DNA of 61,664 nt, counting the filler, from Dugesia japonica (lineage: Eukaryota), in assembly GCA_001938525.1 (NCBI GenBank). It is 6 parts of 6 records of this genome, joined end to end, with 100 filler letters (N's around TTAATTAATTAA, not from the genome) between each part and the next. Parts side by side here need not be neighbours in the genome. Positions count along the whole stretch, not along the records: positions 9,662 to 21,031 come from MQRL01584820.1; 5 more parts are not named here. The stretch is one strand, 5' to 3'. The notes under the pieces are model-generated. The model saw only the letters and a list, made by a program, of their open reading frames with translations, had not been told where the DNA came from and made no database searches. Shown piece after piece: positions 2,097 to 61,664 of the stretch (positions within the stretch are counted from its first letter, which is position 1; each line of letters opens with the position of its first letter). Position numbers and translations under genes: made by a program.

Positions 2097-3499
2097 TTCA
2101 TATGGACCTTTATAAGGTCTTGCTAATTTATTTGTTTACCCTTTCTGTGTAACTGGTGCTTTTATCTTCACCTTATCTCCCACTTTAAAATTATGTTCTC
2201 TAGCTTTTCTGTCATGATAATCTTTGTATTGTTCCTATTTGAATTTTACTTTTAGATTGGCTTGTTTATAGTCTTTCTTGTATTGTTGTAAAGTAATCTG
2301 GATTATCCATGTATTGTGACACAATTGGCTCAAATATTATATCTATTGGCATATGATTTTGTCTGAGGTACATAAGATAAAATGGTGAATATCCCGTGGC
2401 CTCGTTTTCAGTTGTATTATGTATGAATAATGCTGGCTTAATAAATAGATCCCAATCATTTTGATGTTTATTTACGAAAACTGCCAATCTATTACATAAT
2501 TTACTGTTGAATCTTTCAACTAACTCATCAGTTTGTGGGTGATATACCGTCGTATTTATTTTTTTAATATTAAACATATTTGTCACCCTTTGTGTGACTT
2601 CATTGAGGAAATTCTTTCCCCTATTGGATAGCAGCTTTCTTGGCGCTCCATATTTGTATATTATTTTTTCAATTAATAACTTTGCTACTGTATCTGCTGT
2701 TTCATCTTTTGTAGGAAATGCCTCTGNCCACTTTGTAAAATAGTCATTGAATACTAATATATGTTTATTGCCTTTTATAGTTGTTGGTAATTTGCACAAA
2801 AATTCCATTGCACATGTTTCCATTGGTTAGCTGGGTATTGACATTGGTTGTAATGGAACTTTGATTTTTGTTCCTGCGTTCTTTCTTGTGGCACAGATAC
2901 TACACGCTTGACACTATTTCTTCAGATCCTCTTTGATATTATCCCAATAGTATTTTTGTAGCAACCTTAACGTGGTTTTTCTACTAGATAGGTGTCCTCC
3001 GAGTGCTCCATCATGATATTGTAATAATAACAACTGTTTTAGAGAATCTGGTACAACCATCAGATTTTTCCCTAAATTATTGTACATAAGTAAATTCTTA
3101 TACATTTTATATTTAGTATTCTTTTCTTGCAGCATCATCTTTTTAATCTCTTTTATTTGTTTATCTTTATTTTGTTCCTCTAGAAAAGTTTTTGGGTTTG
3201 CTCTTGTCATCACAATTGACATCATTACTAATATATTCACTTCTGGAATTCTTGATAATGCATCGGCGTTTTTGTTTGCTCTACCTGGCTTTTATATAAT
3301 ACGTATGATCATATCTTGAATTTTATTGTCCACTTCAGTATTCTACTGGATGCATTATTATTTTTCCATAGACCCTCTAAGGATTTATGATCTGTTCGGA
3401 TGACATTTTCTGTTCCATATATAAATGGTCTAAATTGTTTTTTACGCGAATATGATAGCTAAACATTCTTTTTCAATTGTTGAATACCTATTTCTAGTT

Positions 3500-4730
3500 T
3501 AATAGATCATTAGGTTCTGAAATATTAATTATTTTATTGAGAATAGACAGTCTTTTAGAAATATAAAACTATATTATTTCATAACCTACTTAAGAAAATT
3601 CATTTACATAAAAACTTAATTAAACCAAAATAAATTTCACTATAAAATTCAACATGCAAAAGTAAATTATTTTATTCTTTAATCGAGCTCCCAGCTATTC
3701 CATAAAAATTTAATGACTTTTGAATATCATTTTCTCACAAATTCGACTTTCAATTTTCCTCATGTCTCTGCCATAAATTACTAACTGCTAGATATCATTT
3801 TCTCACAAATTTGACTTTCATTTTTTACTCACATTGCTGCAATAAATTACTGATTTTTGGAGCTCAATCATCGTACAATATATGGAACACTCAGATCATA
3901 AAACGGTTAAGAGTTTAATAACATTAGCACAATAGAACAAAGATTTTCTTCTCACTATTATCTTCGATATCCAAAAGCTTTCTAAGAATTTCTTCACTGT
4001 CCGGAATTTATTTCGATGAAAACTAAAAATATAGTATCAAAAATTATGTTCAATGATTGTAATAATAATAAAAAATTAAAGTGTGAATCTGATTATTTTT
4101 TCAGTGCAAACGAGTTTTATTCATTGTTTGCACCACAACTTCCAACTCATCATTCGTCCACCAATCAGCTTCGATTTTTGCCCAATTTGGGTTTTATGAT
4201 AGGTTGCTACATTGCTCTCCTTTGGTGTGCACCTCTTTATTTTCGGTTTGGTGAGAGGTTCGCGCACACCAACTCACCGATAATCTCCTGTCATCAGTCA
4301 CCTTGTATGACCTCTGATGGCGGATTTTAGTTACCACCGATTTTCTTTGTCTGGTTAAGGGTGATTCATGAAGTTTGTTATTAAATTTGGACTTAATTCA
4401 CCTTTACCAGACGATGACTGGACCAAATATTTCTTTAATTAAGAAATAATTAATAATATAAAACGCTGAATAGCGTTATTATAGTAATGAAATAGGGTCG
4501 TAGAGGACCCTTTAATAATTTATTATATAGTATATTATTTTTATTATTTAATACATCATTTTCTTTTATCTCATATACTTTTCGCTACCATGCAACGAAA
4601 TTTGGGTCATCTACGCCCGATTTCGGATTTTCGAGATTTCCAAAATTAATTCATTATAATTATATTAATAATTACATAATAATAATGATAATTCTGTATA
4701 TAATAAGCAATTTTTTGGTTCAGCCCATCA
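3500..4730 (-). repeat. Probable LTR fragment (start TGATGGGCTGAACC at 4730 on minus strand)
   Basis: Terminus resembles TGTTGGGGTGAAAC at 9978(+), 9970(-) and 39814(-); contains an internal ~70-bp tandem duplication near 3724-3855. Confidence 0.45.
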
Positions 4731-5389: not shown

Positions 5390-6165
5390 AGCGCACGGGC
5401 ACAATAAAATGCCATTTGGCATTGCGGCGACACCAGAAACATTTCATGAAATTAATCCAGAAAAGTGTCAGTTTTTAAAAGCACAATCAAATTTCTGGGA
5501 CACATAATTAGCAGGCATGGTGTCAGAACTGATCCGTCTAAAATAGAAGCAATAAGAACATTTGGCAAACCTAACTGTATGAAGAATTGACGAAATTTCT
5601 TAGGAATATGTAAATTTTACAGAAACTATAGAAAATTATGCCAGAAAATCAAGAATCTTAGAACAGTTGTGTATGGGACCCATCAACAAGAAATCAAAAT
5701 GAATAGATGAAATAAACAATACTTTTAAGGATCTGAAGAAAACGCTAATGACTGCACCTAGATTATGTTTTCCAGACATCAACAGATAACTTATATTAGA
5801 CGCAGATGTCAGTTTCGATACAATTGGTACAGTATTGTTACAGAGAGATAAAGAAGGAAGAGAAAGAGTTGTTGTCTATGGATCACACTCAACGACGAGT
5901 CATGAAAAGATATATTGCATGATACGAAAGGAGTTATTGGCTGTTTATTTTTTCTGTATGCATTTAAAACATTACTTGTACGGTAAAAGATTTACTCTTA
6001 GAATAGATCATAACTTTCATGATGACGACAAAGAAATCAATTACGTCATAATTTCAGACATAGATTAATTATATGAGCAGTTTAGGCATGGTTTTGGAAT
6101 ATAGAAAAGGAATTCAACATAGTAATGCAGATATGTTATCTAAACCAAGATGTGAGGTATGGGTA
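5390..6165 (+). mobile_element. Gypsy pol fragment (RT with internal deletion, RNase H)
   Basis: MPFGIAAT, INPEKCQFL, FLGHIIS, RKELLAVYFFCMHLKHYLYGKRFTLRIDH, NADMLSKPRC; same family as 59320-61600. Confidence 0.9.
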
Positions 6166-6538: not shown

Positions 6539-7858
6539 ATGGAGTTACATAATATAATAGAAACAAATATTAATCTTGATAATAATATTAATTTCCAACA
6601 TTTATTTTTGAAAAATGATGTTTTAAGAAGTACACCTTCATCTTGTTCAATTAGTCATTTAATGTCTTCTGGAAATATAGTTTTTCAATCTTTACAATCA
6701 TCAAATCCATTAGACATTTCTAATTCAATGTTATAGTAGAGATAACTGTTTCAGATAAAGATAAAATAACTTTAGAAAATAATTGGTTTCCTAGTTTATT
6801 CAAAACGATGAGATTAACTTTAGGATCTTCAGATGTAGAAAAAATTCATGATCCTAGAATAATTTCAACAATGTTAAATTTTATAACAACTACTTCAACT
6901 TATAAAAATATTTATGGTAAATCATCTGGATGGATTCCAGACACAAATAAAGGACATTTAGATGTTAATGGATTGGGTAAAAATTTAGGTTTTTATAAAA
7001 GAAATAAACTTTATTCGAAAAATAAATTTGAAGGTGGTTTTTCTTTAGAAAATTTATTTGGATTTATGCAATGTTATAATAGATTATTATATAATACAAA
7101 GATTGAATTTACTTGTAATCGANNNNNNNNNNNNNNNNNNNNNNNNNNNNNNNNNNNNNNNNNNNNNNNNNNNNNNNNNNNNNNNNNNNNNNNNNNNNNN
7201 NNNNNNNNNNNNNNNNNNNNNNNNNNNNNNNNNNNNNNNNTTTTAGAAAGAATTTATACAAATAAATCTATTCAAGTTTGTTTTTTAAATAGAATTACTT
7301 CAAGTACAACTTTAGTTTCTTGAAATAAATATTCACTTAAATTGATTAATTTAGTTTATAAACCAAGATATATATTTATTGTAATAAAAGATGATGATAT
7401 TTCTTATCAAAAGAATAACANNNNNNNNNNNNNNNNNNNNNNNNNNNNNNNNNNNNNNNNNNNNNNNNNNNNNNNNNNNNNNNNNNNNNNNNNNNNNNNN
7501 NNNNNNNNNNNNNNNNNNNNNNNNNNNNNNNNNNNNNNNNNNNNNNNNNNNNNNNNNNNNNNNNNNNNNNNNNNNNNNNNNNNNNNNNNNNNNNNNNNNN
7601 NNNNNNNNNNNNNNNNNNNNNNNNNNNNNNNNNNNNNNNNNNNNNNNNNNNNNNNNNNNNNNNNNNNNNNNNNNNNNNNNNNNNNNNNNNNNNNNNNNNN
7701 NNNNNATTAATACTGTGAATGTAACTTTACATTTAACTAAAGATCCTGGTTTTAAAGGAAGTTTGTATTGGTGTATTTTAGAGGAAAAACATATAGAAAT
7801 GAAATTATCAGATAGTAAAATTGTTATGATTGAAAATGTTCGAGGAGAAAAATTCTAA
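6539..7858 (+). pseudogene. Polinton/adintovirus major capsid protein (double jelly-roll, PY-type)
   Basis: Motifs LENNWFPSLFKTMRL, GW.PD, GFYKR, LENLFGFMQCYNRL, KPRYIFI; in-frame stops at 6734 and 7321; N gaps. Confidence 0.8.
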
Positions 7859-7877
7859 TTAGATTTTAAATTTAAGT

Positions 7878-7903
7878 TGTCGTCTACAGACGACACTTTT
7901 TAT
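7878..7903 (+). terminator. GC-rich hairpin TGTCGTCT-AC-AGACGACA followed by TTTTTAT after the capsid stop
   Basis: Perfect 8-bp stem about 20 nt after the TAA; terminator role is inferred only. Confidence 0.4.
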
Positions 7904-7920
7904 TTAGAGTTTAAGTTTAA

Positions 7921-8202
7921 AAAATCATTGATCCAGATAAAATAAAAAAAATAATCGAAGATCATAACTATGAAAATGATAACTTTAGTTTTAAACAGAA
8001 ATTTAAAATTGGAGATATAGTTAGAATCTTTAAATATAAATATAAATTTGAAAAAAGATTTACAGCTAAATGGACAAATGAAATATTTATTGTAACAAAA
8101 GTATATAAAACAAAACCTTTTACTTGTGGAATTACAAACTTAGAAAATGAAAAAATTCTAGGTAGATTTTATGATTATGAACTTCAGAAAACAGTTTTAT
8201 AA
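7921..8202 (+). pseudogene. Maverick c-integrase C-terminal domain (catalytic core absent)
   Basis: KFKIGDIVRIFKYKYKFEKRFTAKWTNEIFIVTKVYKTKPFT...GRFYDYELQK matches the Polinton integrase tail pattern; no start codon in frame. Confidence 0.85.
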
Positions 8203-8632
8203 ATTTAAAATTAATAAATTAATTTTTAAATTTATTTTAAAAGGTTGTTTAGAAAAAGAATTTATTACAATTGATAAAATTGATAAACAAGAGTTAAAAG
8301 AAGAAATTAAACAAGAATTAAAAGAAATTATAACAAGTGAGTTATTAATTCTAAAAGATATTATTAAAACTGATAAACAAATTCAAATGAAACAAATAGA
8401 TAAAAGAAAAAATTTCAGAAATCCACCAGAATTATTTTGGAAGTGGTTGACTTTAGATATGCCCGAAACTTTTAAACCATTTGAAGAAATACAAGAAGAT
8501 TATAAAATAAACAACTACTTCGAAAATTTTGATTTTACTAATATGGATAAATATAGTATGCGTTTATTAAAATTAATAATAAATAGATTAAAAGGAAAGG
8601 AAACAGATAGATTTTACGGCATTCTGAAATAA
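8171..8632 (+). CDS. Maverick hypothetical protein A
   Basis: Open frame between integrase tail and ATPase; true start uncertain; shares a motif block with the next ORF. Confidence 0.6.
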   Translation: MIMNFRKQFYKFKINKLIFKFILKGCLEKEFITIDKIDKQELKEEIKQELKEIITSELLILKDIIKTDKQIQMKQIDKRKNFRNPPELFWKWLTLDMPETFKPFEEIQEDYKINNYFENFDFTNMDKYSMRLLKLIINRLKGKETDRFYGILK

Positions 8633-8711
8633 AAATCTTTTTTGATGAAAAAATAACTTCTGATTATAAATCTTAATTTTTAAAAAATTTTAAATTAATA
8701 AAAATATAAAA

Positions 8712-9068
8712 ATGGGGAATACACAAAATTCTAAAAAATCAAAAAAAAATAATGAAGAACTCACTAACATTCATGACCAGAAGGAACTCAATAACGCTTG
8801 TGACCAAAAAGAACTACAAGAAAATAATATTGAAAAAGAAGAGCAAAAAGAAGAAAAAGAAGAGCTAACACAAACAGAAGGTGATAAAAAACCTAAAACA
8901 TTTTGGAAACAGTTAATTAATGATATATCAATAGAAAAAATAGATGAAATTCCATTTTACAATAACTTAAATTTTATAAATATGGGTATGCCAAATTTAC
9001 CTTTATTAAATATGAGTGCTAGTAAATTAACTAATGATTACATAAAAGAAAAAAGTAATAAATATTAA
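8712..9068 (+). CDS. Maverick hypothetical protein B (MGN N-terminus, acidic tract)
   Basis: Intact 118-aa ORF with AAAATG context; probable paralogue of ORF A. Confidence 0.7.
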   Translation: MGNTQNSKKSKKNNEELTNIHDQKELNNACDQKELQENNIEKEEQKEEKEELTQTEGDKKPKTFWKQLINDISIEKIDEIPFYNNLNFINMGMPNLPLLNMSASKLTNDYIKEKSNKY

Positions 9069-9085
9069 TTTTTTATTTAATAAAA

Positions 9086-9561
9086 ATGACACAGCTAATC
9101 TGGAATAAAAATAAAACCATATTTAATAATAAAATCTTTCCATTTCATTTTAGATTATTAATAATTGGTTCTTCAGGATCTGGTAAAAATGTTTTATTAA
9201 TGAAAATGTTATTAACTCCTAAGTTTTTAGATTATGATACTTTAATAATTTATTCTACTACAATAAATCAATTTGAATTACAATTACTTTATCGTGGTTT
9301 TGAAAATGGATTATCAAAAGAAGATATTATTTTTATTTTTGAACATCAAAATATAATTCCTGATTCCTTGATAACACCATTAGAAGTAATTCAATGGGAT
9401 ATTAAAAAATATTCAGTCCCATAAAAAACCAAAGAATGGTAAATGTAATTTTAAGTAATAAACCAAATGAAATTATTCCTTGTGATTAATTATCGAAAGA
9501 TAAAAAGAATTTAATAGTTTTTGATGATGTTGTTAATGAAAAAAATCAAGAAGTACAAAAA
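9086..9561 (+). pseudogene. A32/FtsK-like DNA packaging ATPase
   Basis: Walker A GSSGSGKN after FRLLII; Walker B NLIVFDD near 9510-9530 beyond stops. Confidence 0.88.
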
Positions 9562-9661
9562 NNNNNNNNNNNNNNNNNNNNNNNNNNNNNNNNNNNNNNN
9601 NNNNNTTAATTAATTAANNNNNNNNNNNNNNNNNNNNNNNNNNNNNNNNNNNNNNNNNNNN
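9562..9661. other. Artificial contig spacer (N44-TTAATTAATTAA-N44)
   Basis: Same six-frame-stop linker also at 21076, 29997, 39134 and 53269. Confidence 0.97.
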
Positions 9662-9956
9662 TCGAAAATTTGAACTTTTTTTACAAATAAATTTTGTTTT
9701 GTTTTGATCGAAGCCTTATCTTATTTTAATAATTTGGTATCGTTTTATTTTAAAATTAATTAATTTGTTGCATTAATTAATTATTTTCCATATTATTTTT
9801 TTCTGGTTATTTCTTTTTAATTATTAAAATTTTCTTAATTAACGATCATAAATAGCTTCCCTTTCTTCCCACCTTCTTCATTTTAATTTCATTTCCTTTT
9901 ATTGTTGCTTTTTGTGCTTTATTTCCTCCCTTGATTTATTCTATACTTTAATGGGT

Positions 9957-9991
9957 GTTTCACCCCAACACTAATAATGTTGGGGTGAAAC
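9957..9991. repeat. Back-to-back LTR-like termini: GTTTCACCCCAACA-7nt-TGTTGGGGTGAAAC
   Basis: Perfect 14-bp inverted repeat with TG/CA ends; flanks 9720-9850 and 10250-10350 are also weakly inverted-similar. Confidence 0.7.
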
Positions 9992-11183
9992 CCCCGGTCT
10001 GTAGAGAAAAAACAAAGCCAAGGGCCCAGGACGAAGTAATGATGGAGACAGGGGGGTCGAAAAGAAAGTCAATCAAAAACCACATAGTTACGACGGAAGA
10101 GTTATAAAAACTACATCGAAGCCAGAAGGAAAATAATTAAGAAAAATTATAAAATTATAAGCTAAATTATAAGGAATAAAAGATCAAAATATAAAGAACA
10201 TGGATATGAAGACCTTGAGTCAACAAATCTGGCCCACATCAATTACAATAATCAAAAGAAATTATAAAATTAGTAATAAAAGGCAAGAAAAGTATTACGG
10301 AGAAATAATTAATTATCGGNAAAATATTAATTAATTTTGAAATAAAATAAATTTAAATTAGCCGAAAATCAGTTTTCTATGAATATCTCTGCTCAGAATA
10401 ACCGCAGAAACCGTAGCAAGAAAATCTAGAAAGAAAAAGATCTGGGACAATAGGATTTGGTAACCTGAAAATCGTGGCATCATCAGGGAAGCCCCTACAA
10501 GGGTTTGGAAAATGGGCCAATGAGGGGTCAGAAAAGAAAAATAGAACAAAGGCAAGAAAGTCACATGGTGCTCCAAAATAAGCACCAATAGAGTAACAGA
10601 AAACGATGAAAAATTCTTGGAAATTCAGATCAACACCAATGAAATCACAGAAATTTGAAATAAAAATAGCCGACCAATGGAGATTATGCTGGGTTGCATT
10701 TGGAAAGCTATAAAAAGGCTTCAAATTTCAGACAAAAACTATAATAAAACATCAGTCAATTAATAAACTTGCGTACGTATACCTATTATCTAAAATTTGA
10801 TTATTATTATTTATCCCGGGTAAAGATCGGTCACTCTATTGTCGTTTATTATTACTCATTTATTATTAAAATCGTTTATTATTGATATTTCCATTTTTAA
10901 TAATAATAATATAATTAACCTGTTAACGATATAACAGCATGGCCAGATCGGTTCATTAGTATTATCATCAGTAATCCTCCTATACTCAGCAGGTTACCGG
11001 GTTGCACATAAATGATATACACCTCCCAATTAAAATTATATAACAAGCGGTTTATTATTTTGACTTACTAATTATTATGCAAACACCGGCTGTTCACGCA
11101 TTGTATCTTTTTGCCGATATTGCTTCTCACGCTGAGTAATCCTGAAATTAGGTAGGCTTTAATCTATACCTTAATTCTAGAAT

Positions 11184-12485
11184 ATGTCAACCAAGTTACG
11201 AGATACCCTCAAACTGATTCGGAGGAAACGTAGAACAGCCTATTTAAGACAATTAGTGGCTCACATCTTATTTCGTGGTAAGGTTGAACATCCGGACAAA
11301 ACAGACTTACAATGTTTCGCCGAGTTGTTTCCGTAAAGTTTGACGTGGATCTGGATAAAGAAACCGAACCAACTTAATTAAAAACATCTGATTTACGTGT
11401 TTATTTAAATAAAAAGTTAAAGGCTTCTGCGTGTTCATGTTGATAAGGGTCACATTAAACAAATACTTCTTTTTCTTAATGATATTTTATATTTGATAAT
11501 ATTACATGACTGTGAGATGGACTATAAATGGGAAACCCTTTATGATCGGCGTACCGGCCGGTTGATTTTTAGAAGATATAAGAACCTCCCCATGACCGTA
11601 ACGCTGGAATGTTCACAGACTACACTAACTTGTCATAGGAAGACGCGCAGAATGAAAGAGAATGGGACGCGGCCGAGCGGCGAGCCTATTATGAATGGAC
11701 AGGGCCAGATCGGTCCTGGGAAGTACTCCACACAGTACTCCAATTCAAAAGGAGGAGTTTGATACTATCAGTGATTGGAGGGAAGGCCCATTAATGATTC
11801 CAGTATCAGCGGCTCACCTTCTACCCTTCTTGGTATTGAGCGCATCCATTGGTGACACGTTATGGGAACTGCGTAATGCAGTACGGGATGCTCATAATGA
11901 AAATGCTGATGTTGTAGGAAACACTAACTCTTGATTGTCGAAGATGGTTGGTGTCGTCAAATTTTTTGTTAATACAAATTAGGGATCGTTATTGTTTATA
12001 AATACTTCTTAGTCTGATTTTTCGCACGAGTTAATTTACATAACATTCGTTATGTGTTTTATATGAAACTCTTTTAAAACGATTTTCCACTATCTATCAA
12101 TAATTAAATAATATCTTTCCTTTCAGTGCATTCTTCACTAAATAGAATCTCTGCACTAACTAAGAAAGTACGTGAGACTAGCGAGAACCAGGAGATGACC
12201 TGGGACCTTTATCGCCCTGCCAAGCGATGGTGGGAGGCCGATACTGCTTCGGCGGAGGCAAAAGTAAAGCGATATCAGACCAAATGCGCCGCATTTCGGA
12301 AGAAGGCTGAAGCATCACATACCCAGGAGAGAGTATGAAAGGCGCAGATAGAGTCTTTCACCGAGGTCATCTAGTCCTAACAAGACCAAGAGGATAAAAT
12401 GGTCCACGATATTTTAAAACTGAAAGCAGCGATGCCCCTCGAACCTTTAATGGTCGATAAGGGTATTCAGACATCACGACGTTAA
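11184..12485 (+). pseudogene. Decayed, possibly spliced coding region with coiled-coil C-terminus, unknown family
   Basis: GC-richer blocks separated by AT-rich spacers; acceptor-like TTTCCTTTCAG at 12126; helical charged peptide SAEAKVKRYQTKCAAFRKKAEA. Confidence 0.45.
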
Positions 12486-13396
12486 TAACTGTTGGTTTCA
12501 TAAATAAATGGTGTTCTTTTCTTAACTAAATTCTTCCTTCCGATTCAATCCCTGTACGTATCTGACTTACATATTGTATTCAATGCTTCCATGTATTTTA
12601 ATCTAATCGTTCAAGTTAATCAATACAGTCATTTAANNNNNNNNNNNNNNNNNNNNNNNNNNNNNNNNNNNNNNNNNNNNNNNNNNNNNNNNNNNNNNNN
12701 NNNNNNNNNNNNNNNNNNNNNNNNNNNNNNNNNNNNNNNNATTCTAATGTTTACTGAGGGTTAACATGATTATATAGTTATAATCCATTTTATCTTACAA
12801 CTAATAGTACAGTTGATATACTTAATCCAATAAAATCAATTTATATAATTATTTATTATGTTAAAGATTCAAATTATTTCATTCATTTCAATAAATATAC
12901 ACTAGGTTCCATAAATTTCCTTGGTTTTCATTAAACTTTCACTAACCATTCAATTGAACCAATTAATAACATAAATTAATCTCCTGATTTTATGAAAGAT
13001 GATAATATGATGAACAATGACACAAATTATTCGAATAATTCAAAATTGAAAGACTTTGTTACTTTAATAATTTATTTTAATATTATTATTTAAGCGGTCA
13101 AATGTCATACAGAAAAATCACTAGACCATAGAATAATATGTGATTGAATTAAATAAACTTTTGTTTTATAGATGTTTTGATTTATAAAAAAGTAATATAA
13201 CAAAGTAGAAATCAATAAAATAAGTCATTAAATTATACTAATATTTATTCAATAAATTTTCATTCAATCTTTTGAGTTGATTTAACTTTTCATATTGGTT
13301 TTACTATTTCTTCCAATTTCTTGNNNNNNNNNNNNNNNNNNNNNNNNNNNNNNNNNNNNNNNNNNNNNNNNNNNNNNNNNNNNNNNNNNNNNNNNN

Positions 13397-13735
13397 CATC
13401 TTCAATTTTCATACGTTCATTGATTCTTACAAATAGTTCATTAAGAGTCTTTTGATCATTGTCACTGATTTCATATTTGTATAAATCATAAACTCAAGGT
13501 TTCACTTTAACAGGATCCTAAATAAAAATGTATTAATAAAGTAACTAGAAAATCAAATATTACTTGAAAAGTATAATTGATTATTCTCTTAAAGAAAACC
13601 ATCTCATGCTTGAAGTAATTTCTTGGTTTTTCACACTCGAATATAATTTTCCTTGGTAAGAGTTTCAATTATCTTCATTTTGAAATAATGCATAATGAAT
13701 AAAAGATTCACTTTATTTAGGTTTAAGAACAATTG
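13397..13735 (-). pseudogene. Decayed exons of an unknown gene with a 46-nt GT-AG intron (13518-13563)
   Basis: GTAATA...TTTATTTAG intron between coding-like blocks (DPVKVKP*VYDLYKYEISDNDQKTLNELFVRINERMKIED). Confidence 0.4.
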
Positions 13736-14599
13736 TGTATTAATTAAATACATTGTTAAGTTTAAACAATTGTTTTTAGAACATTCTTATTAAAATTATN
13801 NNNNNNNNNNNNNNNNNNNNNNNNNNNNNNNNNNNNNNNNNNNNNNNNNNNNNNNNNNNNNNNNNNNNNNNNNNNNNNNNNNNNNNNNNNNNNNNNNNNN
13901 NNNNNNNNNNNNNNNNNNNNNNNNNNNNNNNNNNNNNNNNNNNNNNNNNNNNNNNNNNNNNNNNNNNNNNNNNNNNNNNNNNNNNNNNNNNNNNNNNNNN
14001 NNNNNNNNNNNNNNNNNNNNNNNNNNNNATATTCAATGCAATAGATCTTTGTTACTAAATTCTTTAAATTTTATCAAAATTTTATTGGTTTATTGTTTTT
14101 TAGTATTTGTTTTTCTATAACTTTTTTTGTATAAGGATTGTTGATTTATAACCTTGTTATTCTTACTTACAGTAAATTTTCCTATCGAATACTATTAATT
14201 TCGATAAATTCTGAGTTACTTTTGATATTTTCGAAAAATGTCACAAAATCTGGTAGGGCGGCTGTACATATTCGTTAAGAAGCATTTTTTACCGAGACGA
14301 TATTTTAACTTTGTACAGTCACTTTTACTTACTGAGTAAAATAATACCAAATTTGAGTCGATAGCTGTTATCTGCGCACAGAGCTTTGAGCGCTAAACTC
14401 TGAGTTTTGAGATTTTTCCCCACAAGACCTTATTTATATCATCGGGGATTAAATTTGACTAATTTAAGTTTATATATTTGGAATCAGCAAAACATTCTCT
14501 ATCAAAGAGACATTTTCTTAACCTATTTTGAGAAGATGTACACCCTAATTCCTATAAAAAGTTTAATATTTTGAATCATTTAAACAATTCGTCTACTTC

Positions 14600-15215
14600 C
14601 CATGAATTTCCGTAAAGAATTCTACCTAAACAGACCAACCCGAAGGTTTGATCAAAAATCATAGAAAATTGACCCTTGTGAGTAAATTATCAACCAAGTT
14701 TACCCATACAAAGTACATAATTGACCTTAATGATCCAAACCGAGTAAATAATTGACGAGATCTTCCAAACATTAACTATGGTAACCATTCCTGAAGAAAT
14801 ATTTTACCAAATTACCCAAATATTACCATTCCCGTGGATACTTTCAACCAAATCACCCAAAAAATTAACCAAGTTAACCAAATCTTAGGAAATTTTCAAC
14901 AAATTTTATTTAAATAACCCAAAAATCATCAATCCAGAAATAATAATGGACCTAATTTATCCGAACCAGCCAAAATTGATCAAAATAACGATTTCCGAGG
15001 AAACATTTGACCAAATCACCCAAAAATTACTTAAAACCGACTATGTTTGCCCAAACTGATCAACCCCGAGGAAATAATTGCATAAAATCATACAAAAATT
15101 AAACTTATCGAAGAATCTCCGTAGCAAATCATCCAAAAATTTGAAAATTTGAACAATTCGGTAAACTAGTCATTTAATTCGGTAAACCTTTCAAATAATT
15201 CGGTAAACTATTCAA
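14600..15215. repeat. Degenerate ~40-bp minisatellite (CCGAGGAAATATTTGACCAAATCACCCAAAAATT-like) plus three AATTCGGTAAAC
   Basis: Read directly. Confidence 0.7.
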
Positions 15216-17489
15216 AAATACGAGCAAAAGTTTCCAGAGCCTAAAGATGTCAAAGCAATACAAGAATTTCTTGGATTATGCGGATATTACAGGAAATTTA
15301 TTAAAGTTTATGCATTGATCGCAAAACCCATGCAAGATCTTGTAAAGCAAGATACAGCCTTTATATGGGCAGATGAACAACAAAAATCATTCGAATCTCT
15401 CAGAAATCCGATTACTAAAAGCACCAATTTTAGCTCATCCAAATTTTGAATAATTATTCTTACTTTCAACTGATACAAGCGGATACGCAGCAGGAGCTGT
15501 ATTAGGCCAGTATGATGATCAAGGGCGAGAACACGTTATAGCGTATTTCAGCAAAACATTNNNNNNNNNNNNNNAAAAATTACAGTACAACAGAAAAAGA
15601 AGCTCTCGCGATAGTAAAAGCAATTAAACATTTTAGACATCTACTTCTCGGACATGAAGTCATTATATTCTCAGATCATCAACTATGATTGGTCAGAAAC
15701 CATTACGAACTCTCAGACTTGCAAAATGGGCAATGAGTTTACAAGAATACATGTTGAAAATAAAATTCAGGCGCGGCAAAGCAAATTCTAATGAAGATTG
15801 TCGATCACGGGAAATATTTCCAGAACTTGTAAACAAACAAACGGAAGATATCTGTTTCTAATTATCAGAAGACATAGATAACAATTCAAGGAGGATCAAA
15901 AGAAAGACTCGGAAGTAAAAATTATTCAGGAATATCTAATGGCAACGCAAAGTGATGCACTAAAATGCAACACAGAAATGAGAGAACACTTACTGAAAAA
16001 TGGATGTCGTTACACAATAGAAAAAGGATGGTTAATGGCACAGAATNNNNNNNNNNNNNNNNNNNNNNNNNNNNNNNNNNNNNNNNNNNNNNNNNNNNNN
16101 NNNNNNNNNNNNNNNNNNNNNNNNNNNNNNNNNNNNNNNNNNNNNNNNNNNNNNNNNNNNNNNNNNNNNNNNNNNNNNNNNNNNNNNNNNNNNNNNNNNN
16201 NNNNNNNNNNNNNNNNNNNNNNNNNNNNNNNNNNNNNNNNNNNNNNAGGAAAAGCACCATTAAAACCAATGCCAATACCAACTAAACCAATGGAGATCAT
16301 GGCAATGGACGTAGTCGGACGAATTTTCGAAACTGTAGATGGAATATCATACATTCTGGTATGTATGGATTATCTGTCTAAATATCCTGAAGCATTCCCG
16401 ATTAAAATCAAAAAGCCACAACGATAGCAGAAATATTTGTAAAGGAAATTTGCAGCACCAAAGAAGATCCTAAATGATGAAGGCAGAAATTCTATGAACG
16501 ACATTTTTACAGAAGTCACTAGATACTTCCAAATATTGAAGTTAAGAACATCACCGTACCATCCACAGACAGACGGACTAGTAGAAAGGTTTGACAGAAC
16601 CTTAATTAATATGATATTTTGTTATGTTGATAGAAAAAAAAGACTGGCATCAATTTATACATTTAGTACTATTTGCATATCGATCACAAGTACAACCAGC
16701 CACTAATTATACTCCATTTTTTTCATGTATGTCAGAGAATGTAATTTACCAATAGATTTGGAATACCAACCTCCAATATTACAATATATGGAACAGGAAG
16801 AAGAATTGCAAGAGATCTGGAATAAAGCACGATTAAATATCAAATATTATTGAGAAAGTGTCAAAGATTATCATGACAAGAAAGGAGATAGAGTATTGGT
16901 TAATACTCTAGAAATAGAAATCGGAACGATAGCAAAGTTAAAGAGACTAGGCAAAGGGCCTTACGAAGTATTAGAGTCACAGAAACGAATGTAAAATTCA
17001 GATTAGCTGGTAAAATACTTCAGAAACCACTATGGATTCATGTGAATAAATGTAAAAAGGCAGCTTTAACTAAAGTGACAGATGAACAAATCATCACGGA
17101 AACCCAAGAAACAGAAGTACAAGAATTGGAGGGAACAGAACCAACTCAAGAAGTATCGAGTGACTCGGAGGATTAACAAAAATTGCCATACAAAGGATTA
17201 AAACGTGGACGAAAACCACTAGAAATACGAATTCAACCACCAGCAGAAGTTAAAGATGATCATGTCAGATCTCAGCCAGAACAAATTTGTATGTTGCAAG
17301 TCAGCAAAAAATCAAAAACTAACTCTTGTAAAAAATGAGGTGTCACACAAAGAAACACAATACCAATAGATCAAATAACAGCACGATTTGACTGTTACCA
17401 ATATAATATTGTTTTTCAAAATGAATTAATGGTATCAGAGGCCAGAATAGCCCTGAAATTGAGACAATTGTTCCGTACACAGGATAAAA

Positions 17490-17957
17490 ACAGACACCAA
17501 TGCAAAGACAGTAAATGTTTTAGATACGGACTTCTTAGCAAAATAAGCTATAGGAAGATCATATCCAGATGAAGAAGATGGATGATATACCAGCCCACCA
17601 TTTTATTTATTTAAAGAAGGTTATCTCGCGTCTTTAAGAATTTACCCTAATTGAGATGGGTTAGGAAGAGGAAGCCATTTAAATATTTTCTTTATAATCA
17701 GGAAATGAAAATATGACTACCAGTTAAAATGGACCATGTCGAAAAAATTTAGTATGAGAATAATCCCAGGATACGACAGATGGTTAGAAGGACATGGCGA
17801 AATATATAAAGGCAAACCAAGCGAGATCTACTATCATAAACCTACATCCGATATGAACTTAGGATCAGGATCCCAAACGTTTATATCGATTAAAAAAGTG
17901 CTATCAAACTTCGTAAAAGATGGTAGCATATTTATAGAGATAAGGAATGTTGGTTAG
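17490..17957 (+). pseudogene. TRAF-type MATH (TRAF-C) domain
   Basis: One frame: YTSPPFYLFKEGYLASLRIYPN*DGLGRGSHLNIFFIIRK*KYDYQLKW...HKPTSDMNLGSGSQTFI...FVKDGSIFIEI, colinear with TRAF2/3/5 MATH motifs (SPPFY, GYK.CLR.YLNGDG.G.GTHLS, RP..EMNIASG, YV.DD.IFI). Confidence 0.9.
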
Positions 17958-18128
17958 GAAAGTGAAGCAAATGTGTAATAATCGACTTATCGTTAAATTT
18001 TGATAACAATTATTAGGCGAATTAATAATCTTAACAAATATTAATCTATGTTCATGTCTTTTATAATTATTAATCGATTTAATAAATGATAAATAATTGC
18101 AACTGATAATAATCGTTTTATCATTTAG

Positions 18129-19075
18129 ATGCAAGAATTACCAGAAAATACAGAAGCCTTACGGAAACAGGCCAGAAAGTTAAGAGATCAACTTTACTTA
18201 GGAGAGCCAGCCAGAGACGAAGCTCTGAAGAAAATTGATTGTGGGAAAACATGTCATCAATGGGCATCAACGGTAAGACAAGCCTAGAAATGGAAGCTGG
18301 AGGCAATTACTCAAAAATTGCGAAATCAAGTATTAACGCGAATAAGCGAGGATCATAAAAATTGATTGGACGATGAAAGATCAAAGAGAAAGAGTGCTGA
18401 AGTAGCAGTCTCCTGTCTGAAGAGGAAGGTATCTGAGCTAAGATGCGAGAAACATGCTAATCGAAATATTATACGAGAAGCTCAACATTGGAAGCAGATG
18501 GATATGCTCCGGGGTTACAAGAAAAACAAAGTTGTAACTACCGATCAAAGAAAAGATCAAAAGAAGAAAAGTTAAAAGCGCTCCAGGAAAAACTAAGCCG
18601 GCTAAAATCTAATAAATATAAATTAACCTACGCAAAAATTGAAATGGTAGAGATGCAGGCCGAAATAAACGTTCAAAATAGAGTAATAATTGCGAATCAA
18701 GAGAACAAAAGGCTAGAAGAAGTTTTCACTCGTCAAATTATTCAGAGGTCCTTTTAAAACGCAAGAGAAAATTTTAACCTAAAGAAGCAACTAGAAGAAG
18801 CTAAAGAATAGAGCAGTAAACGAGAATTAGACATTCAGAAGCGCAACAAAAAGATTAAGGAGCTATCACAGAAAGAAGTAAATTTAACGAGAGGCTTTAA
18901 AGAGAAAGAAGAGAAAATACGATATCTCGAATACCTCCATGATTCATTATACCAAACAGTCAAACAACCTCCAGACAGTGAAATAACTTCTCACAAGGAT
19001 TCCGTTCAATCCAATCCATTTATCCATCAAACAACCTCCGATCAATCCAAATACTATCAAGAGACAGTTGTTTAA
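18129..19075 (+). pseudogene. Long coiled-coil accessory protein (frameshifted)
   Basis: MQELPENTEALRKQARKLRDQL...EEKLKALQEKLSRLK...LKKQLEEAKE; ATG immediately follows acceptor-like CATTTAG. Confidence 0.65.
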
Positions 19076-19718
19076 AATATTTGAATAACAAACTAATTAA
19101 AATTGTGTTGATAACTAAGTACATTAATTATTATAGATGTGCATATATTTACATGTCTCGTAACCTTATCTTGCTTAATCATAACTTACTTTATCTTGAT
19201 GCATGTCATTCTCATCTTTATTTATTATGTTATATAAAATATGTATACATTTGAATATTACCTTTTTATTTTTTATTTCTGTGTGGTTGATGACTATGAG
19301 CAAAGAACAAACAGATCCAATCCAGTCCCAAAACCGATTTCCAAATAAATAATCATGAACTGGATTCGGGGGAACGAATCTAAGCGACCTTGGGAGTAAT
19401 CTGTTGGGACAGAACCCAACTATATCCTCAAACAATAAATGATAAAATAAACTGGATAACTAATTCCAGATAATATAATTTATTATTCAACAAATAAAGT
19501 TATTATTATTAAAAATCACTATTATATCTCAACGAAAACTTCCACATTGTTAAAAATAAATAAGAAAAATCTAAATTGTCAATCATATTGAAGAAAATAA
19601 GGAAACATTAATCGGGAAAAGTAATAGATTTCAAATAATATATAAAACAAATATCAAAAATTAATTTGGTTAATCGCAATAATCCACCAATCAGGATAGG
19701 ACGATGCTTGGAAAAGGG

Positions 19719-20569
19719 TATAATAAGACCCGCAAAAATTCATAAAACACCCTTAAACTAGTTAATTAATAACTAGAAAAACATTTTGCAATCTAAAAAT
19801 TTCAAAGAAAATTTCAAAATCCATCTATTACAGTGTTTCAAATTAGATCAAATTATCTCAACAATTATAACTGAGACTTCTTGTATTTCTCGCAGTAGCA
19901 ATTATCTTGTCAATCCATAATTGTCAGAGTGATATACCAAATTTCCTCAGAAGATTAAATCAGATCCGATAGGTAATTGTCGACCAACATTTAATAGTGG
20001 AAATCAAACAACTACTGAGCATCTTTCATTCAGAAAATATAATCCTCGATCAATTATCTCGTAACAAACACTTATACTCAGATAATTTTCCAATCGAATC
20101 ATCCGACAGTTTATTCAACAACGATTAAAATTTTGACAAGCAGAGGCTCGAATTATTTCTATCAAGGAGACTAAATAAAGCAGTGTTAGAAAACTACAAC
20201 ACACTTGATTACTCTAAGTAGAAAAGGAAAAAACTTATTGTTCTTAATTTAAAGGAAAACCAGCCACTAACAAGTTGATATCTAAATTTCGCTCAAGAAA
20301 GAATCAATCATCTCGTATAGCCGAATTGTTTTCCAACCCAACACCAATCCATTCCAGGAACAGATCCGTCAAGTTCATCTCGAGCATCCATCCTATAATC
20401 AATTATCTACTTTGTCTCATAGTCATCTCGAGCACATCGTTTACGACAGTATGTAATATTTTATTTTTATTACATCATTAAATATTAATTATGTAAAGGT
20501 CTTAATCTTATATTATTTTTTTTATTTTCATGTTTAACTAATACACATAGTACGAAATTTATTATCACA
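19719..20569 (+). repeat. 3' LTR of the MATH-carrying Gypsy
   Basis: Starts TATAATAA right after the PPT, ends TTATCACA (inverted TGTGATAA-type ends). Confidence 0.65.
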
Positions 20570-20689
20570 TTAAAACTTATAACCTGTTATGCTTATTATA
20601 TCACTTACGAAGCCTTGTTGTTTATTTTATTATGATTAATATTAGGATATTTTTAGCACTAGCATTTTTAAGTTTGATTATTAGTTTTT

Positions 20690-20957
20690 TAACAATATCA
20701 TTATCATTAGTACTATTTTTTCTACTATTATTAGCCTCACGTCTATTATCATTATTAGTGTTATTATTATTACCATTATTATTATTATTCGTATGATTAT
20801 CGTCCTTTTTATTATCAGCATTATTATCGTTTTACCATTACGGTTATCATTTCTATTATTACTATTATTATTATTATTATTATAATTATTAGTAATTCCT
20901 CTTATGTCAATTATCTATTATTCATACTGATGATTATATTATTATTATTATTTTTAA

Positions 20958-20997
<40 letters not shown>

Positions 20998-21031
20998 GTT
21001 ATTATTATTATTGTTATTATTATTATTATTA
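20690..21031. repeat. (ATT)n microsatellite, degenerate on the left
   Basis: Read directly. Confidence 0.95.
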
Positions 21032-21131
21032 NNNNNNNNNNNNNNNNNNNNNNNNNNNNNNNNNNNNNNNNNNNNTTAATTAATTAANNNNNNNNNNNNN
21101 NNNNNNNNNNNNNNNNNNNNNNNNNNNNNNN

Positions 21132-27779: not shown

Positions 27780-29880
27780 GATAAAGGTAGAAGTAAAATT
27801 CGAGAATAAAAGCGAAACAGTTTAATTCATTGTGTCGAAACAGATACATCCAGATCTAACAGGTGGAATAGAATTACAGAAACAGTATGGATTCCAAGTA
27901 CTGAGAGAGATTAAATGTGAGGATGATTTAATGTATATTTGTAATATAGAAGCAAAGTATAGACGCAATACAACAGATGAAGAGAGAGTACAGAGAGCAA
28001 TAAAAATATTGATTAACNNNNNNNNNNNNNNNNNNNNNNNNNNNNNNNNNNNNNNNNNNNNNNNNNNGAGATTTATTTTTATTAAATTGGATTTGGTAGA
28101 TTTTATGAAATAATATTTTAATTTAATTATGTTATGAATTTGTGTTATGAATTTCTGGCTAAATATATTGGCATTGTTATTATTTTGCATTTACGATAAA
28201 GGTAGAAGTAAAATTCGAGAATNAANGCGAAACAGTTTAATTCATTGTGTCGAAACAGATACATCCAGATCTAACAGGTGGAATAGAATTACAGAAACAG
28301 TATGGATTCCAAGTACTGAGAGAGATTAAATGTGAGGATGATTTAATGTATATTTGTAATATAGAAGCAAAGTATAGACGCAATACAACAGATGAAGAGA
28401 GAGTACAGAGAGCAATAAAAATATTGATTAACAACCCAAATGAGAACTTAGAGAAAGTTATAATGATTTATAAAGGAGTATTCGTGGTATACAACTGGTA
28501 TATCGGTACAACAACTATGCCAGAACATCAAATAATCACAAATGGAGAACCAATAAATACCAAATTATTGAGACAACCAATGGATTTAAAGAATAAGATG
28601 GACGAAGCTATTAAGAATTTGTTTAGCAATGGCATTTTTAGGAAGTGTAATTTTCAATCGAACGCTCCGTTAATATTTGTTTGGAAAAAAGAAAAGAAAG
28701 ACGTTAGATTATGTTTAGATTTTAGAAAACTTAATGCAATCACAGAAAGATTGGCATTTCCGATGCCCAATGTAGAGGAAATACTAGATAATTTTGGTGG
28801 TGCAAGATAATTTAGTGCTATTGATTTGGATAATGCATACCATCAAGTTCCGTTACATAAAGATTCAAAAGAGAAAATAGCATTTTCTATGAAAAATGGA
28901 CTGTATTGTTTCACAAGAATGCCTTTTTGTATAGCTGCAGCACCTGCAACGTTTCAAGAATTAATGACAAAAGTATTAGGAAGATTAAGAGGAACGTCGG
29001 TATACATGGATGATATATTACTATTTTCAGAAAATTTAGAGCAGCACTATGGAATTTTAGACCAGGTTTTTAAAGGAATTCAAGAATCAGAATTGAGAAT
29101 TAATCCGGAAAAATGTCATTTATTGCGAGCAGAAGTCGAATTTTTCATAGACAAGAATAGAGTTCGAACTGATCCAATAAAATTGCAGAGATAGAAAATT
29201 TCGGAAGACCTAAATGTGTGAAGAATTTGAGAAGCTATTGATAAGAAAATATAAGCTTTTTGGGAATTTGCAATTATTATAGACGGTTTTTCAAAATTAC
29301 TCAAAGAAAACTAGAAGCTTGGAAGAGTTATGTGGAAGTAATAATACAATACTGGTGTGGTCTGAAAATTGTGATAAATCTTTTAATGAAATGAAAGAGG
29401 CATTAACAAAAGAACCGATATTGAGTTTTCCAGATATCATAAAGATGTTTGTACTAGATACAGATGCGAGTTTTGATGCCATTGGAACAGTTTTATCGCA
29501 AATAGATGAAAAAGGTTTAGAACAAGTCATTGCATATAAGTCACATGCAATATCAGCTCATGAAAAAGAATATTGTTTAACAAGAAAAGAATTTATGGAT
29601 ATTTACTATTTTTGTAACCATTTTAAACATGATTTGTATGGAAAAATATTTTTGGTGAGAACAGATCACAAGGCGATAGCATTTACGAAAAAGACAAACA
29701 AGCCAATTACTCTGCAATTTCAGACTTAGATGAATTTTCTTAGTAGCCTAGATATGATATTAGAATTTAGACAAGGTGCGAAACACAGGAATGCAGATAT
29801 GGGGTCGAGAATGAATTGTGGTACGTGTGTACTATGCTTAACAGATCATGAGAATCCAAAGGAAGGTAAAATAAAGAAAA
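27780..29880 (+). mobile_element. Gypsy pol (protease end, RT, RNase H), degenerate
   Basis: RLCLDFRKLN, YMDDILL, LDTDASFDAIG, RTDHKA, NADMGSR. Confidence 0.95.
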
Positions 29881-31918
29881 GAACAACTAATTCTACATCT
29901 TATATTATGCAAAATTTCGAAATTATAAAAATTATTTTGTAAACTTATAATANNNNNNNNNNNNNNNNNNNNNNNNNNNNNNNNNNNNNNNNNNNNTTAA
30001 TTAATTAANNNNNNNNNNNNNNNNNNNNNNNNNNNNNNNNNNNNNNNNNNNNCAGTATTTTTTTTATCAAAAATTAACTGTACGTAAACCTTTGAATCGT
30101 AATGTAAATTTTGATATGGTAACCAATTTTTTTTTTTTCTAATTTTTCTTACAAATTTTTCAAAATTATTCAAGTATATACAAAACTTGGTAACATTTGC
30201 ATTACAAGAAATACAACAAAACAAGAATTATATGGTAGTATATGCACATGAATTGAATCAATTTGATCTAGTAATCTAACAGTTATAACTTATAAACTAG
30301 AAAATTAACAATAATAAAATAAAATCATGAAACATTGAGCAGGATAACTTCAATATAAACGCAATTATTTAGTGTAGTGAATGCTTTTGAAAATTAATAT
30401 TTAAATCTGTTTAAGGATATTTAGATATTTAGTCGTTTTAACGCACAATTTGTAAACATATTGTTAAAAGTTTTTAAATATCGCACTGGTGATATATTAT
30501 AAATTATGTAGAATAAAATTCAAGGATTTACTTTGGTTCATAGAATTTGGATTAAACTTTACAAATAAATTGTTCGCAAATACATAATAAATATTGAAAA
30601 ATTAAATGAATAAAATNNNNNNNNNNNNNNNNNNNNNNNNNNNNNNNNNNNNNNNNNNNNNNNNNNNNNNNNNNNNNNNNNNNNNNNNNNNNNNNNNNNN
30701 NNNNNNNNNNNNNNNNNNNNNNNNNNNNNNNNNNNNNNNNNNNNNNNNNNNNNNNNNNNNNNNNNNNNNNNNNNNNNNNNNNNNNNNNNNNNNNNNNNNN
30801 NNNNNNNNNNNNNCTCAACGTAAATATTAATTATGAACATATATTAAAATTTTAATTTAAATAAATTTTAATTAATAACACTATTAGTTACTATCCAAGT
30901 TTTGCGTAAACATTAATGAAGGGAGGGGGCTGTTTGAAATTAAGCGTATTGGTGCATACAAAGGGGAAATGAATAATTTATCTTAGTTTTAGTATTTTTT
31001 TTTTACATTTACATTTAGATTTACATTTTTACCTGTTTCTACTTTTCAAAAATTACCAAATTTTTCATGGTGTTCTCGAAACTGTTTAATACAAATAGAA
31101 AAAATTCCGCAAAGTAAATTTTAAATGCATGAATAAACCTTTTAAACAAATGATTGTTGGGTGTTGAAATCCTCATTTATACGTCGCATGGTAGGTTAAA
31201 AAAATGTACGAGATGCAACAAGAAAAATGAAAATTACTTTTTAGATAAGCAATACATGAACTACTTTTGGAGATCTACGAATTGAAATTTTATCTTCTAA
31301 ACACTACATTTGTAGAAATCTAATAAAAGTTTCAACAAGAACATAGATCCGATTTCTTACAGTTAAGTTCAGTAAAACATTTTCGGTAAAATACTCTAAA
31401 CTTCAGGTCAAATGTAAAGTCCTATAATTTGAAAATACCTAGCAGAAATAATTAAGAGAAAAATCTAGATTTTTAGGAGAAATTAAAATTCTGCATGGCA
31501 CTATTTAACTTACAAGTGTCATGAAGTTAGGAATTTCGTCAATTTGTTATAATCGCCCTGATGTATTACTTTGTGAGAAGATTCTAATATTATTAAAAAT
31601 GGATTACATCACAATAAAAAATTAAATCAAAAATTATTGTACGCCAAACTATTTAAGAAACTAATTTGTGAGGGAAGAAACAGGGCATATGTAGCGTTCA
31701 ATTTGTCATTACTAACTAATATTATATAAGAATTTAATTAATTCTTTAAATTGTATGTATTTTGCGATTTTTAAATTCAATTATTTCATTAAATAATAAT
31801 TATAAGTTTAACAATTTTTAAACAATTTCCTAACATAATATAACAGTAGTTCTCAACCTTTTTAGATAACGCACACTAATAATGAAAATAGGAAATGAAG
31901 TAATTTTTTAAATCTTAA

Positions 31919-38985: not shown

Positions 38986-39189
38986 CGTAATAAAAATGGA
39001 GACTTATCAATTAATATTAAAACAGAGACCACATAAATATAATTTTATACAAGATTATTTTATTTAAATTATTTAATTATATATATATANNNNNNNNNNN
39101 NNNNNNNNNNNNNNNNNNNNNNNNNNNNNNNNNTTAATTAATTAANNNNNNNNNNNNNNNNNNNNNNNNNNNNNNNNNNNNNNNNNNNN

Positions 39190-61600: not shown

Positions 61601-61664
61601 TTAGAAAGTTCTTAAAAACCTGGATATAAGGAAAAATTAAAAAATGATTAAAAAATTTCAACCA

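Follow-up and report, generated by a model that had tools for sequence, protein, structure and literature searches.

The Gypsy Element and Its MATH Domain

The window, i.e., the whole stretch of 61,664 nucleotides of Dugesia japonica DNA that was analysed, contains on one of its scaffolds (9662-21031) the last 5.4 kb of a Ty3/Gypsy retrotransposon, and a TRAF-C/MATH domain is encoded behind its integrase (Table 1). Reverse transcriptase (RT), RNase H, and integrase follow each other in the Ty3/Gypsy order, which crosses two scaffold N gaps, and they are situated upstream of the domain on the same strand, as the original prediction had stated for the integrase. On its 5′ side the element breaks off at about 15216, and the 5′ LTR, gag, protease, and most of the RT are missing from the scaffold. 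At this truncated 5′ end of pol a 21-nt tandem repeat stops at 15216; the repeat-rich region of 14600-15216 (45-nt and 21-nt units), which abuts the cut, is probably another inserted repeat. The RT remnant has no match in Pfam, and the Pfam rve match of the integrase (4.1e-4) is under the cut-off of that profile. The GPY and H-x-N-x-C-K motifs are readable in the integrase region, the GPY/F motif being described as a hallmark of Gypsy integrases in the available text of PMC2836005. The integrase contains several stops and frameshifts, and a 200-N gap lies ahead of it, where a zinc finger would be expected. From the integrase core to the putative polypurine tract (PPT) and LTR (16247-20680), the sequence is free of N and of assembly gaps.

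Table 1. Features of the MATH-bearing Gypsy element, with positions counted along the window
Feature	Position	Strand	Basis and remarks
Reverse transcriptase, C-terminal part	15222..15440	+	PDB (phmmer) 4ol8, RT/RNase H, 2.5e-8; Ty3-G Gag-Pol 7q5b, 1.6e-7
Ty3/Gypsy-type RNase H	15409..15780	+	RT_RNaseH_2 1.6e-14, RT_RNaseH 2.7e-12; frameshifted, 14-N gap
Integrase core and C-terminal GPY/F module	16248..17059	+	PDB foamy-virus integrase 1.2e-7, Ty3-G 9.4e-5
Coding linker in the integrase-tail frame	17060..17515	+	acidic stretch, KRGRKP, spacer
TRAF-C/MATH domain	17526..17957	+	Pfam and PDB matches; 4 in-frame stops; first strand broken at about 17516-17530
ORF3, broken, about 310 codons, coiled-coil-like	18129..19075	+	stop counts below expectation; between MATH and PPT
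3′ untranslated stretch with two possible hairpins	19355..19440	+	shared by more copies than its flanks
Putative polypurine tract GGAAAAGGG	19710..19718	+	one of 4 purine runs of at least 9 in 19076-20700
Putative 3′ LTR, 0.85 kb	19719..20569	+	TA...CA ends, imperfect terminal inverted repeat

The frame of the integrase tail (16985-17572) contains 3 stops, one of them terminal, in 196 codons, compared to 14.7 expected (P=0.001). Within the linker, KRGRKP is a motif which we take to be AT-hook-like, and no Pfam match, RING, zinc finger, or clear coiled coil was found there. Linker and MATH are separated by one frame change, of which the integrase of this copy has several, and no ATG is encountered in the MATH frame between the upstream stop at 17460 and the domain.

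For the MATH frame (17490-17954, with X at stops) the match to Pfam PF21355 (TRAF-mep_MATH) has an E-value of 6.1e-20 (72.3 bits, cut-off 27.4) and spans positions 4-124 of the 125 of the profile, and the match to MATH_2 has an E-value of 2.2e-15. Among PDB structures, TRAF3 (2.2e-20), TRAF2 (1.3e-18), and TRAF6 (2e-7) are matched, so that the HMMER comparison with Pfam and that with PDB both bear out the TRAF-C/MATH assignment of the original prediction. The first β-strand lies outside this frame, and recognisable MATH begins at about 17526. TRAF-C core motifs are present, and in the alignment the hot-spot-3 residues R50 and Y52 are retained; the serine triad sites read E-I-Y (0 of 3 matching) and the hot-spot-1 Cys is replaced by Ser. 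The domain had been predicted to be intronless, and residues 13-153 are indeed uninterrupted and colinear with its relative P0152. Stops break the frame, as had been claimed; they number four (codons 19, 32, 55, and 73), and one is TAA and only three are TGA; shuffled sequences would lead one to expect 12.8 in 155 codons (P=0.003). Also, the place behind the integrase holds, whereas the distance, predicted as about 400 bp, is about 465 bp (integrase end at about 17059). The description of the domain as RING-less applies to this copy and to nothing beyond it: in 16985-17600 no RING or zinc finger was matched, the best E being 0.11 to a TRAF N-terminal profile. In the 77 codons ahead of MATH the crude heptad score is 1.15, the lowest of six segments; the pre-MATH helix of the relative P0010 scores 1.20, and the junction is degenerate. 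No second MATH domain was found within the window.

ORF3, to which the original prediction made no reference, contains 2 stops in 148 codons and 2 in 170, compared to 10.5 and 12.5 expected. Its crude heptad score is 1.40-1.45, its hydropathy maximum is 0.47 without a transmembrane segment, and no Pfam match under E 0.9 was obtained. A pyrimidine-rich tract ending in AG directly before its ATG is a candidate splice acceptor. The fold of the untranslated stretch further downstream has a z of -2.2, with 7 of 200 shuffles equally good, and Rfam returned only one match at chance level (E 1). The tract GGAAAAGGG is found where the original prediction had noted it and is a putative PPT. The predicted 3′ LTR fared less well, since it starts with TA instead of TG, though ending with CA, and has no twin within the window, the 5′ half of the element being absent from the scaffold. 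The claim that MATH lies inside the LTR boundary thus retains the PPT-like tract and one contig joint described below, but not a pair of LTRs; a 3′ LTR boundary is plausible and remains putative.

Copies in the Genome and in RNA

Two DNA contig sets (X1, X4) and two RNA read sets (X10, X13), i.e., four of the 24 sequencing runs, were compared with 16247-20680 at 80% likeness. Matching contigs for this stretch of 4434 nt number 3715 in X1 and 3214 in X4. Contigs with variant letters number 33-53 at three MATH positions, compared to 19-52 at integrase and tail positions, and the putative LTR is repetitive as well, variant contigs numbering 11-28 at those of its positions that are listed, which reach as far as 20392. 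Summed contig depth, which is not a copy number and varies hundredfold between single places, amounts to 59-129k over the integrase core, 61-104k over its tail, 8-14k at the linker-MATH junction, 31-46k over the MATH core, 2-10k over ORF3 (2-3k directly behind MATH), and 0.2-1.1k over the LTR; the MATH core is therefore covered far deeper than its flanks on either side. Single listed contigs have depths of 5-38. Over the untranslated stretch (19355-19440) the summed depth is 9.5k/7.7k, compared to 1.0k/0.5k just upstream, and it drops about 14- to 18-fold behind the bin holding the putative PPT. At single points of the junction depth is low (783/509 at 17445, 30/57 at 17574), and none of the contigs listed bridges it. 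In X1 and X4, one contig each joins integrase to MATH (16920 to 17885), and MATH is joined to the purine tract (17978 to 19712) by a single X1 contig, in all cases without the intervening sequence being seen. In other copies MATH is thus connected both to the integrase and to the purine tract, and loose ends behind 17956 and 17978 represent copies which diverge after the MATH stop into other 3′ regions.

In nearly all matching contigs the codon-55 stop of MATH and both internal stops of the linker are replaced (38,947 of 38,966, 15,409 of 15,444, and 2,977 of 2,977 in X1), and these three stops are therefore private to the copy in the window. The remaining three stops of MATH do not occur among the 40 variants listed, with 516 more beyond the listing. 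With 364 listed places in X1 over the 4434 nt, the divergence of this copy is about 8%, so that single residues may reflect decay. That no indels are listed at the two frame changes is uninformative, since the evident frameshifts of the integrase are unlisted as well. No poly(A) is found at MATH, the longest A run being 5, and no target-site duplication is convincing, the longest flanking direct repeat having 9 nt and lying inside ORF3. Of the outcomes which would have spoken against the original prediction, neither the lack of a MATH match nor, as signs of a one-off insertion, an own target-site duplication or poly(A) was obtained. MATH is plainly repeated far beyond the scale of a gene family and, with multi-copy contigs and linkage on both sides in other copies, it is borne by a repeated Gypsy family, of which it is likely a standard part.

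About a quarter of each RNA run was read. In X10, 234 reads matched, 173 of them less than 90% alike and 4 at least 99%, and in X13 none of the 27 matching reads was at least 99% alike. X10 coverage is maximal over MATH, reaching 17-28x at 17579-17874 and no more than 11.5x anywhere else, and its first mates map to both strands. RNA reads mostly agree at 17837 with this copy, as opposed to most DNA contigs, and long loose ends of RNA reads are found before 17529 (12 reads) and 17586 (11 reads). Low-level transcription is thus attributable to diverged relatives, whether these are elements or a host gene.

Relatives and Origin of the Domain

Relatives were sought among 1.84 billion protein representatives. 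The best single-domain relatives are P0010 (46-47% identity) and P0068/P0152 (49-50% identity). P0010 and P0152 are full-length unnamed TRAFs with weak RING and zinc-finger matches, and the region which they have in common with the element is MATH only. In a tree of 26 hand-picked rows the window MATH forms a clade with P0010 and P0152 (support 99/98), in agreement with the predicted derivation from the TRAF family; a quick tree comprised 122 rows, 48 of the 170 MATH-matching proteins having been excluded as multi-domain or short.

P0062 (882 residues) possesses coiled-coil-like and ubiquitin-like-looking regions (by eye, without Pfam match) and one MATH domain. We label it Burro-like from this architecture, which resembles the published layout of the planarian Gypsy element Burro. 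It is 38% identical to the window MATH and has no match beyond MATH. Although a P-G...W loop is common to the window MATH, P0010, P0152, and P0062, a sister position of the window MATH to P0062 is rejected (p-AU 0.029), whereas a four-member clade including P0062 is not (p-AU 0.29), both tests being weakened by long branches. According to these sequence comparisons, the nearest relatives are the full-length RING-TRAFs P0010/P0152 and not the Burro-like MATH, and the best fit is a capture that was independent but drew on the same fast-evolving group of TRAFs.

In P0064 an integrase GPY/F tail is in frame with a whole TRAF. The tail resembles that of the second Gypsy element of the window (E 3e-7), and the protein groups with TRAF2A of D. 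japonica, to which it is 48% identical, and TRAF-4 of Dendrocoelum lacteum (support 96/96). P0064 may be another true fusion of integrase and TRAF, or else the gene model is a chimera involving a host gene similar to TRAF2A. Three word-seeded protein searches, which are weak evidence, yielded no Pol-MATH polyprotein: with MATH 0 of 112 and 0 of 19 candidates passed, and with P0064 1 of 5010, a protein with MATH-family Pfam matches only. None of the best 150 representatives matches RT or integrase core of the elements in the window, and no intact family member was found among the proteins searched. In viral contigs 0 of 8, 0 of 1, and 0 of 109 stretches matched, and in metagenome contigs 1 of 244, a distant and uninformative 30% match (L001).

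Other Features of the Window

The window has about 28% GC and is full of broken transposons. Artificial linkers (N run, TTAATTAATTAA, N run) at 9562-9661, 21032-21131, 29953-30052, 39090-39189, and 53225-53324 join unrelated scaffolds, and neighbourhood across them is therefore meaningless. A second Gypsy element is situated at 1113-3550 on the minus strand, its integrase being 38% identical to that of the first; its GPY/F tail continues in frame into an ORF of 340 codons, which comprises a hydrophobic stretch, a stalk rich in Thr, and, at the C-terminus, a membrane helix. This extension is env-like and has no Pfam match. Further broken Gypsy pol fragments are found at 5550-6165, 28241-29870, 59416-61664, and 47359-48400, the first three being 66-79% alike at the DNA level. 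Weak matches to a double jelly-roll (4e-4) and an A32-type ATPase (3e-3) at 6724-9424 suggest a Polinton-like fragment. Remnants of a mariner-type transposase (32566-33255, Transposase_1 2.9e-12) and of an ISXO2/IS1595-like transposase (48613-49275, 4.1e-12) are also encoded. The region 11000-12500 is GC-richer and shows broken coding-like frames (no Pfam match under E 0.09 in the one frame compared), and 50724-51175 is a tandem array of a 31-nt unit.

Possible Functions of the MATH Domain

The domain itself, its place behind the integrase, the fact that it is repeated in the genome, and the proteins closest to it are matters of observation. Going beyond them, we tentatively favour, at slightly less than even confidence, the reading that the window contains an old, broken copy of a repeated Ty3/Gypsy element in which a MATH domain from a divergent TRAF gene follows the integrase, forms the end of Pol in intact copies, and docks on a host protein. 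The last part of a spliced TRAF mRNA might have been copied into the element during reverse transcription, which would account for a domain that is intronless and consists of TRAF-C alone. It would then have spread with the element and been kept across subfamilies with differing 3′ ORFs. Translated as the end of Pol after the acidic linker, MATH would stay on the integrase or be cleaved off by the element protease, integrase multimers could supply the avidity normally given by the missing TRAF-N coiled coil, and the peptide groove might serve as a link between the integration complex or particle and a host partner that is not a classic TNF-receptor tail. As judged from the frames, a fusion of Pol and MATH is likely, since the frame of the integrase tail continues open as far as 17572, i.e., up to the domain; that the linker stops and the codon-55 stop are private and that the MATH frame lacks an ATG of its own also support it. 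For the function we prefer to infer a docking role on the integrase, by analogy, since GPY/F is followed by binding or ubiquitin-related modules in Ginger1 and by chromodomains in chromoviruses. In the second Gypsy element of the window the same slot holds a membrane-protein extension, and P0064, in which the GPY/F tail leads in frame into a whole TRAF, is a further parallel.

The original prediction had proposed a decoy, i.e., a free RING-less TRAF-C which competes with host TRAFs for receptor or adaptor tails and dampens innate-immune or death signalling in cells with an active element. The retained R50 and Y52 of hot spot 3 and the X10 reads of diverged relatives, which peak over MATH, are in line with it. 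Moreover, Burro carries MATH together with BIR and BCL2-like domains, and the available text of a review suggests that MATH and other domains of Burro meddle with apoptosis and ubiquitination (PMC6431247); planarian TRAF-like proteins are reported, in the literature as far as accessible, as cell-survival regulators. However, TRAF-C binds peptides via three hot spots and TRAFs engage receptors in the form of trimers, for which the TRAF-N coiled coil is the basis (available text of PMC6125299), whereas the segment before MATH has the lowest heptad score of those compared; the serine triad is absent, hot spot 1 has Ser in place of Cys, and this copy offers no start codon for a separate MATH ORF. 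As the full triad is missing from named planarian TRAFs, too, and about 8% of this copy is decayed, mammalian TNFR-type specificity cannot be assumed, but nothing more follows from these residues. With no clear TRAF-N coiled coil and no serine triad, the case for a decoy seems weaker than proposed, and we consider this function rather unlikely. Instead, intact elements might carry a whole TRAF as accessory gene (RING, zinc fingers, coiled coil, and MATH) acting as ubiquitin ligase, the front part of which was lost here, and P0010/P0152 may then themselves be element-borne. That the nearest relatives are full-length RING-TRAFs, that P0064 combines an integrase tail with a whole TRAF, and that coverage dips at the junction, where RNA reads have their loose ends before 17529 and 17586, would be explained in this way. 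Among the best-supported rows there is, however, no DNA loose end in 17430-17580, and 16985-17600 holds no trace of RING or zinc finger, so that a whole TRAF appears improbable.

No function is demonstrated for MATH here, and the TRAF fragment might be a neutral passenger, gained once and amplified with a successful element; the scarcity of RNA reads at least 99% alike in X10 and X13 would agree with this. Nevertheless, MATH is better conserved among copies than its flanks, and despite a divergence of about 50% from its nearest relatives it has kept the TRAF-C core motifs, which implies long coding selection, either in the element or in an unseen donor; we regard a passenger as quite improbable. 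A one-off TRAF pseudogene in this copy, or a rearranged piece of Burro, is very improbable. The scaffold is fragmented, the element is cut at its 5′ side, and the loop common with P0062 as well as the four-member clade that survives the test would allow for a Burro piece. Against this, MATH is multi-copy and linked on both sides elsewhere, poly(A) and target-site duplication are lacking, and identity to P0062 is low, with the sister pairing rejected and no match outside MATH; in addition, MATH of Burro is situated upstream of pol in the available text of PMC6431247. A processed pseudogene as such is rejected in view of the missing poly(A), the lack of a convincing target-site duplication, and the many copies.

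A wider version of the docking reading, which we think unlikely, would be that Gypsy lineages of this animal group captured TRAF more than once (Burro upstream of pol, the present family behind the integrase, and possibly P0064), that the integrase-linked MATH is a new docking or targeting domain, and that part of the planarian TRAF/MATH expansion is retroelement-borne. A second, differently placed capture would mean that TRAF-C is repeatedly useful to Gypsy elements, which would make it a testable pattern instead of a Burro curiosity. Although the copy in the window is dead, its MATH is small and would be easier to test than the Burro polyprotein of 4,873 residues. MATH expansions are described for Schmidtea mediterranea transcriptomes (121 and 282 transcripts; available texts of PMC6109357 and PMC7586133), and the main text of PMC7586133, as far as available, contains no word beginning with "transpos". 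In a planarian host, gene counts of host TRAFs based on MATH, and RNAi directed against them, may be confounded by element-borne copies.

Comparison With Known Systems

The original prediction had cautioned that Burro might diminish the novelty of the finding, and rightly so, since MATH_TRAF_C in GYPSM1/Burro is published (PMC6431247, available text). In the literature listings and abstracts searched, this was the only relevant report of TRAF or MATH in an LTR element, and the position behind the integrase was unreported; this position and the separate origin appear new. "TRAF" is absent from the main text of PMC2836005, "TRAF" and "MATH" from that of PMC5408684, and "TRAF" from PMC8532177, in each case as far as the text is available.

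The window MATH resembles the TRAF-C of TRAF2/3 type (PDB 1kzz and 1ca4; PF21355) in its core motifs and in the Arg and Tyr of hot spot 3. Unlike TRAF2/3 and RING-TRAFs, this copy is without RING, zinc fingers, clear TRAF-N, and serine triad, and it is borne by a retroelement. Chromoviruses are Gypsy elements with a chromodomain at the C-terminus of the integrase. As in these, a host-type binding module is situated behind GPY/F, though fold and ligand differ and targeting by MATH is only putative.

The Ginger1 transposases carry C-terminal OTU, Ulp1, or PHD domains, so that, similarly to the window element, a Gypsy-type integrase with GPY/F is followed by a host-like, ubiquitin-linked domain (PMC2836005, available text). 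In contrast, the Ginger1 elements are DNA transposons, which possess terminal inverted repeats but lack RT, whereas RT and RNase H are encoded in the window element; with both upstream in order, an identity with Ginger1 is ruled out. Non-env ORF3s are common (available texts of PMC5718144 and PMC5408684), and those of bdelloid rotifer LTR elements comprise GDSL, DEDDy, and transmembrane or coiled-coil ORFs, typically expressed from spliced RNA (PMC5408684, as available). The window element is similar to the rotifer elements in that family-specific captured modules, including coiled-coil ORFs, are located downstream of pol.

According to the available text of PMC6431247, which cites Jurka 2007 and Grohme 2018 for GYPSM1/Burro, MATH_TRAF_C occurs in ORF1 of GYPSM1/Burro1 and also in Burro-2 to -4; in an element from Dugesia tigrina it is contained in an ORF located upstream. 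Like Burro of S. mediterranea and D. tigrina, the window element is a Gypsy element with MATH_TRAF_C, a coiled coil (Smc-like in Burro), and many copies. Unlike in Burro, no BIR, BCL2, ankyrin, or ubiquitin-like domain was found in its last 5.4 kb, and its MATH is not sister to that of the Burro-like P0062. Burro elements are more than 30 kb long, with an internal part of up to 25 kb, whereas the putative LTR of the window element measures 0.85 kb (Burro sizes from the available text). Burro as defined is ruled out as an identity by the place of MATH: in Burro1 it is contained in ORF1 ahead of the env-like region and the protease, upstream of pol, whereas in the window element it is situated 3′ of the integrase.
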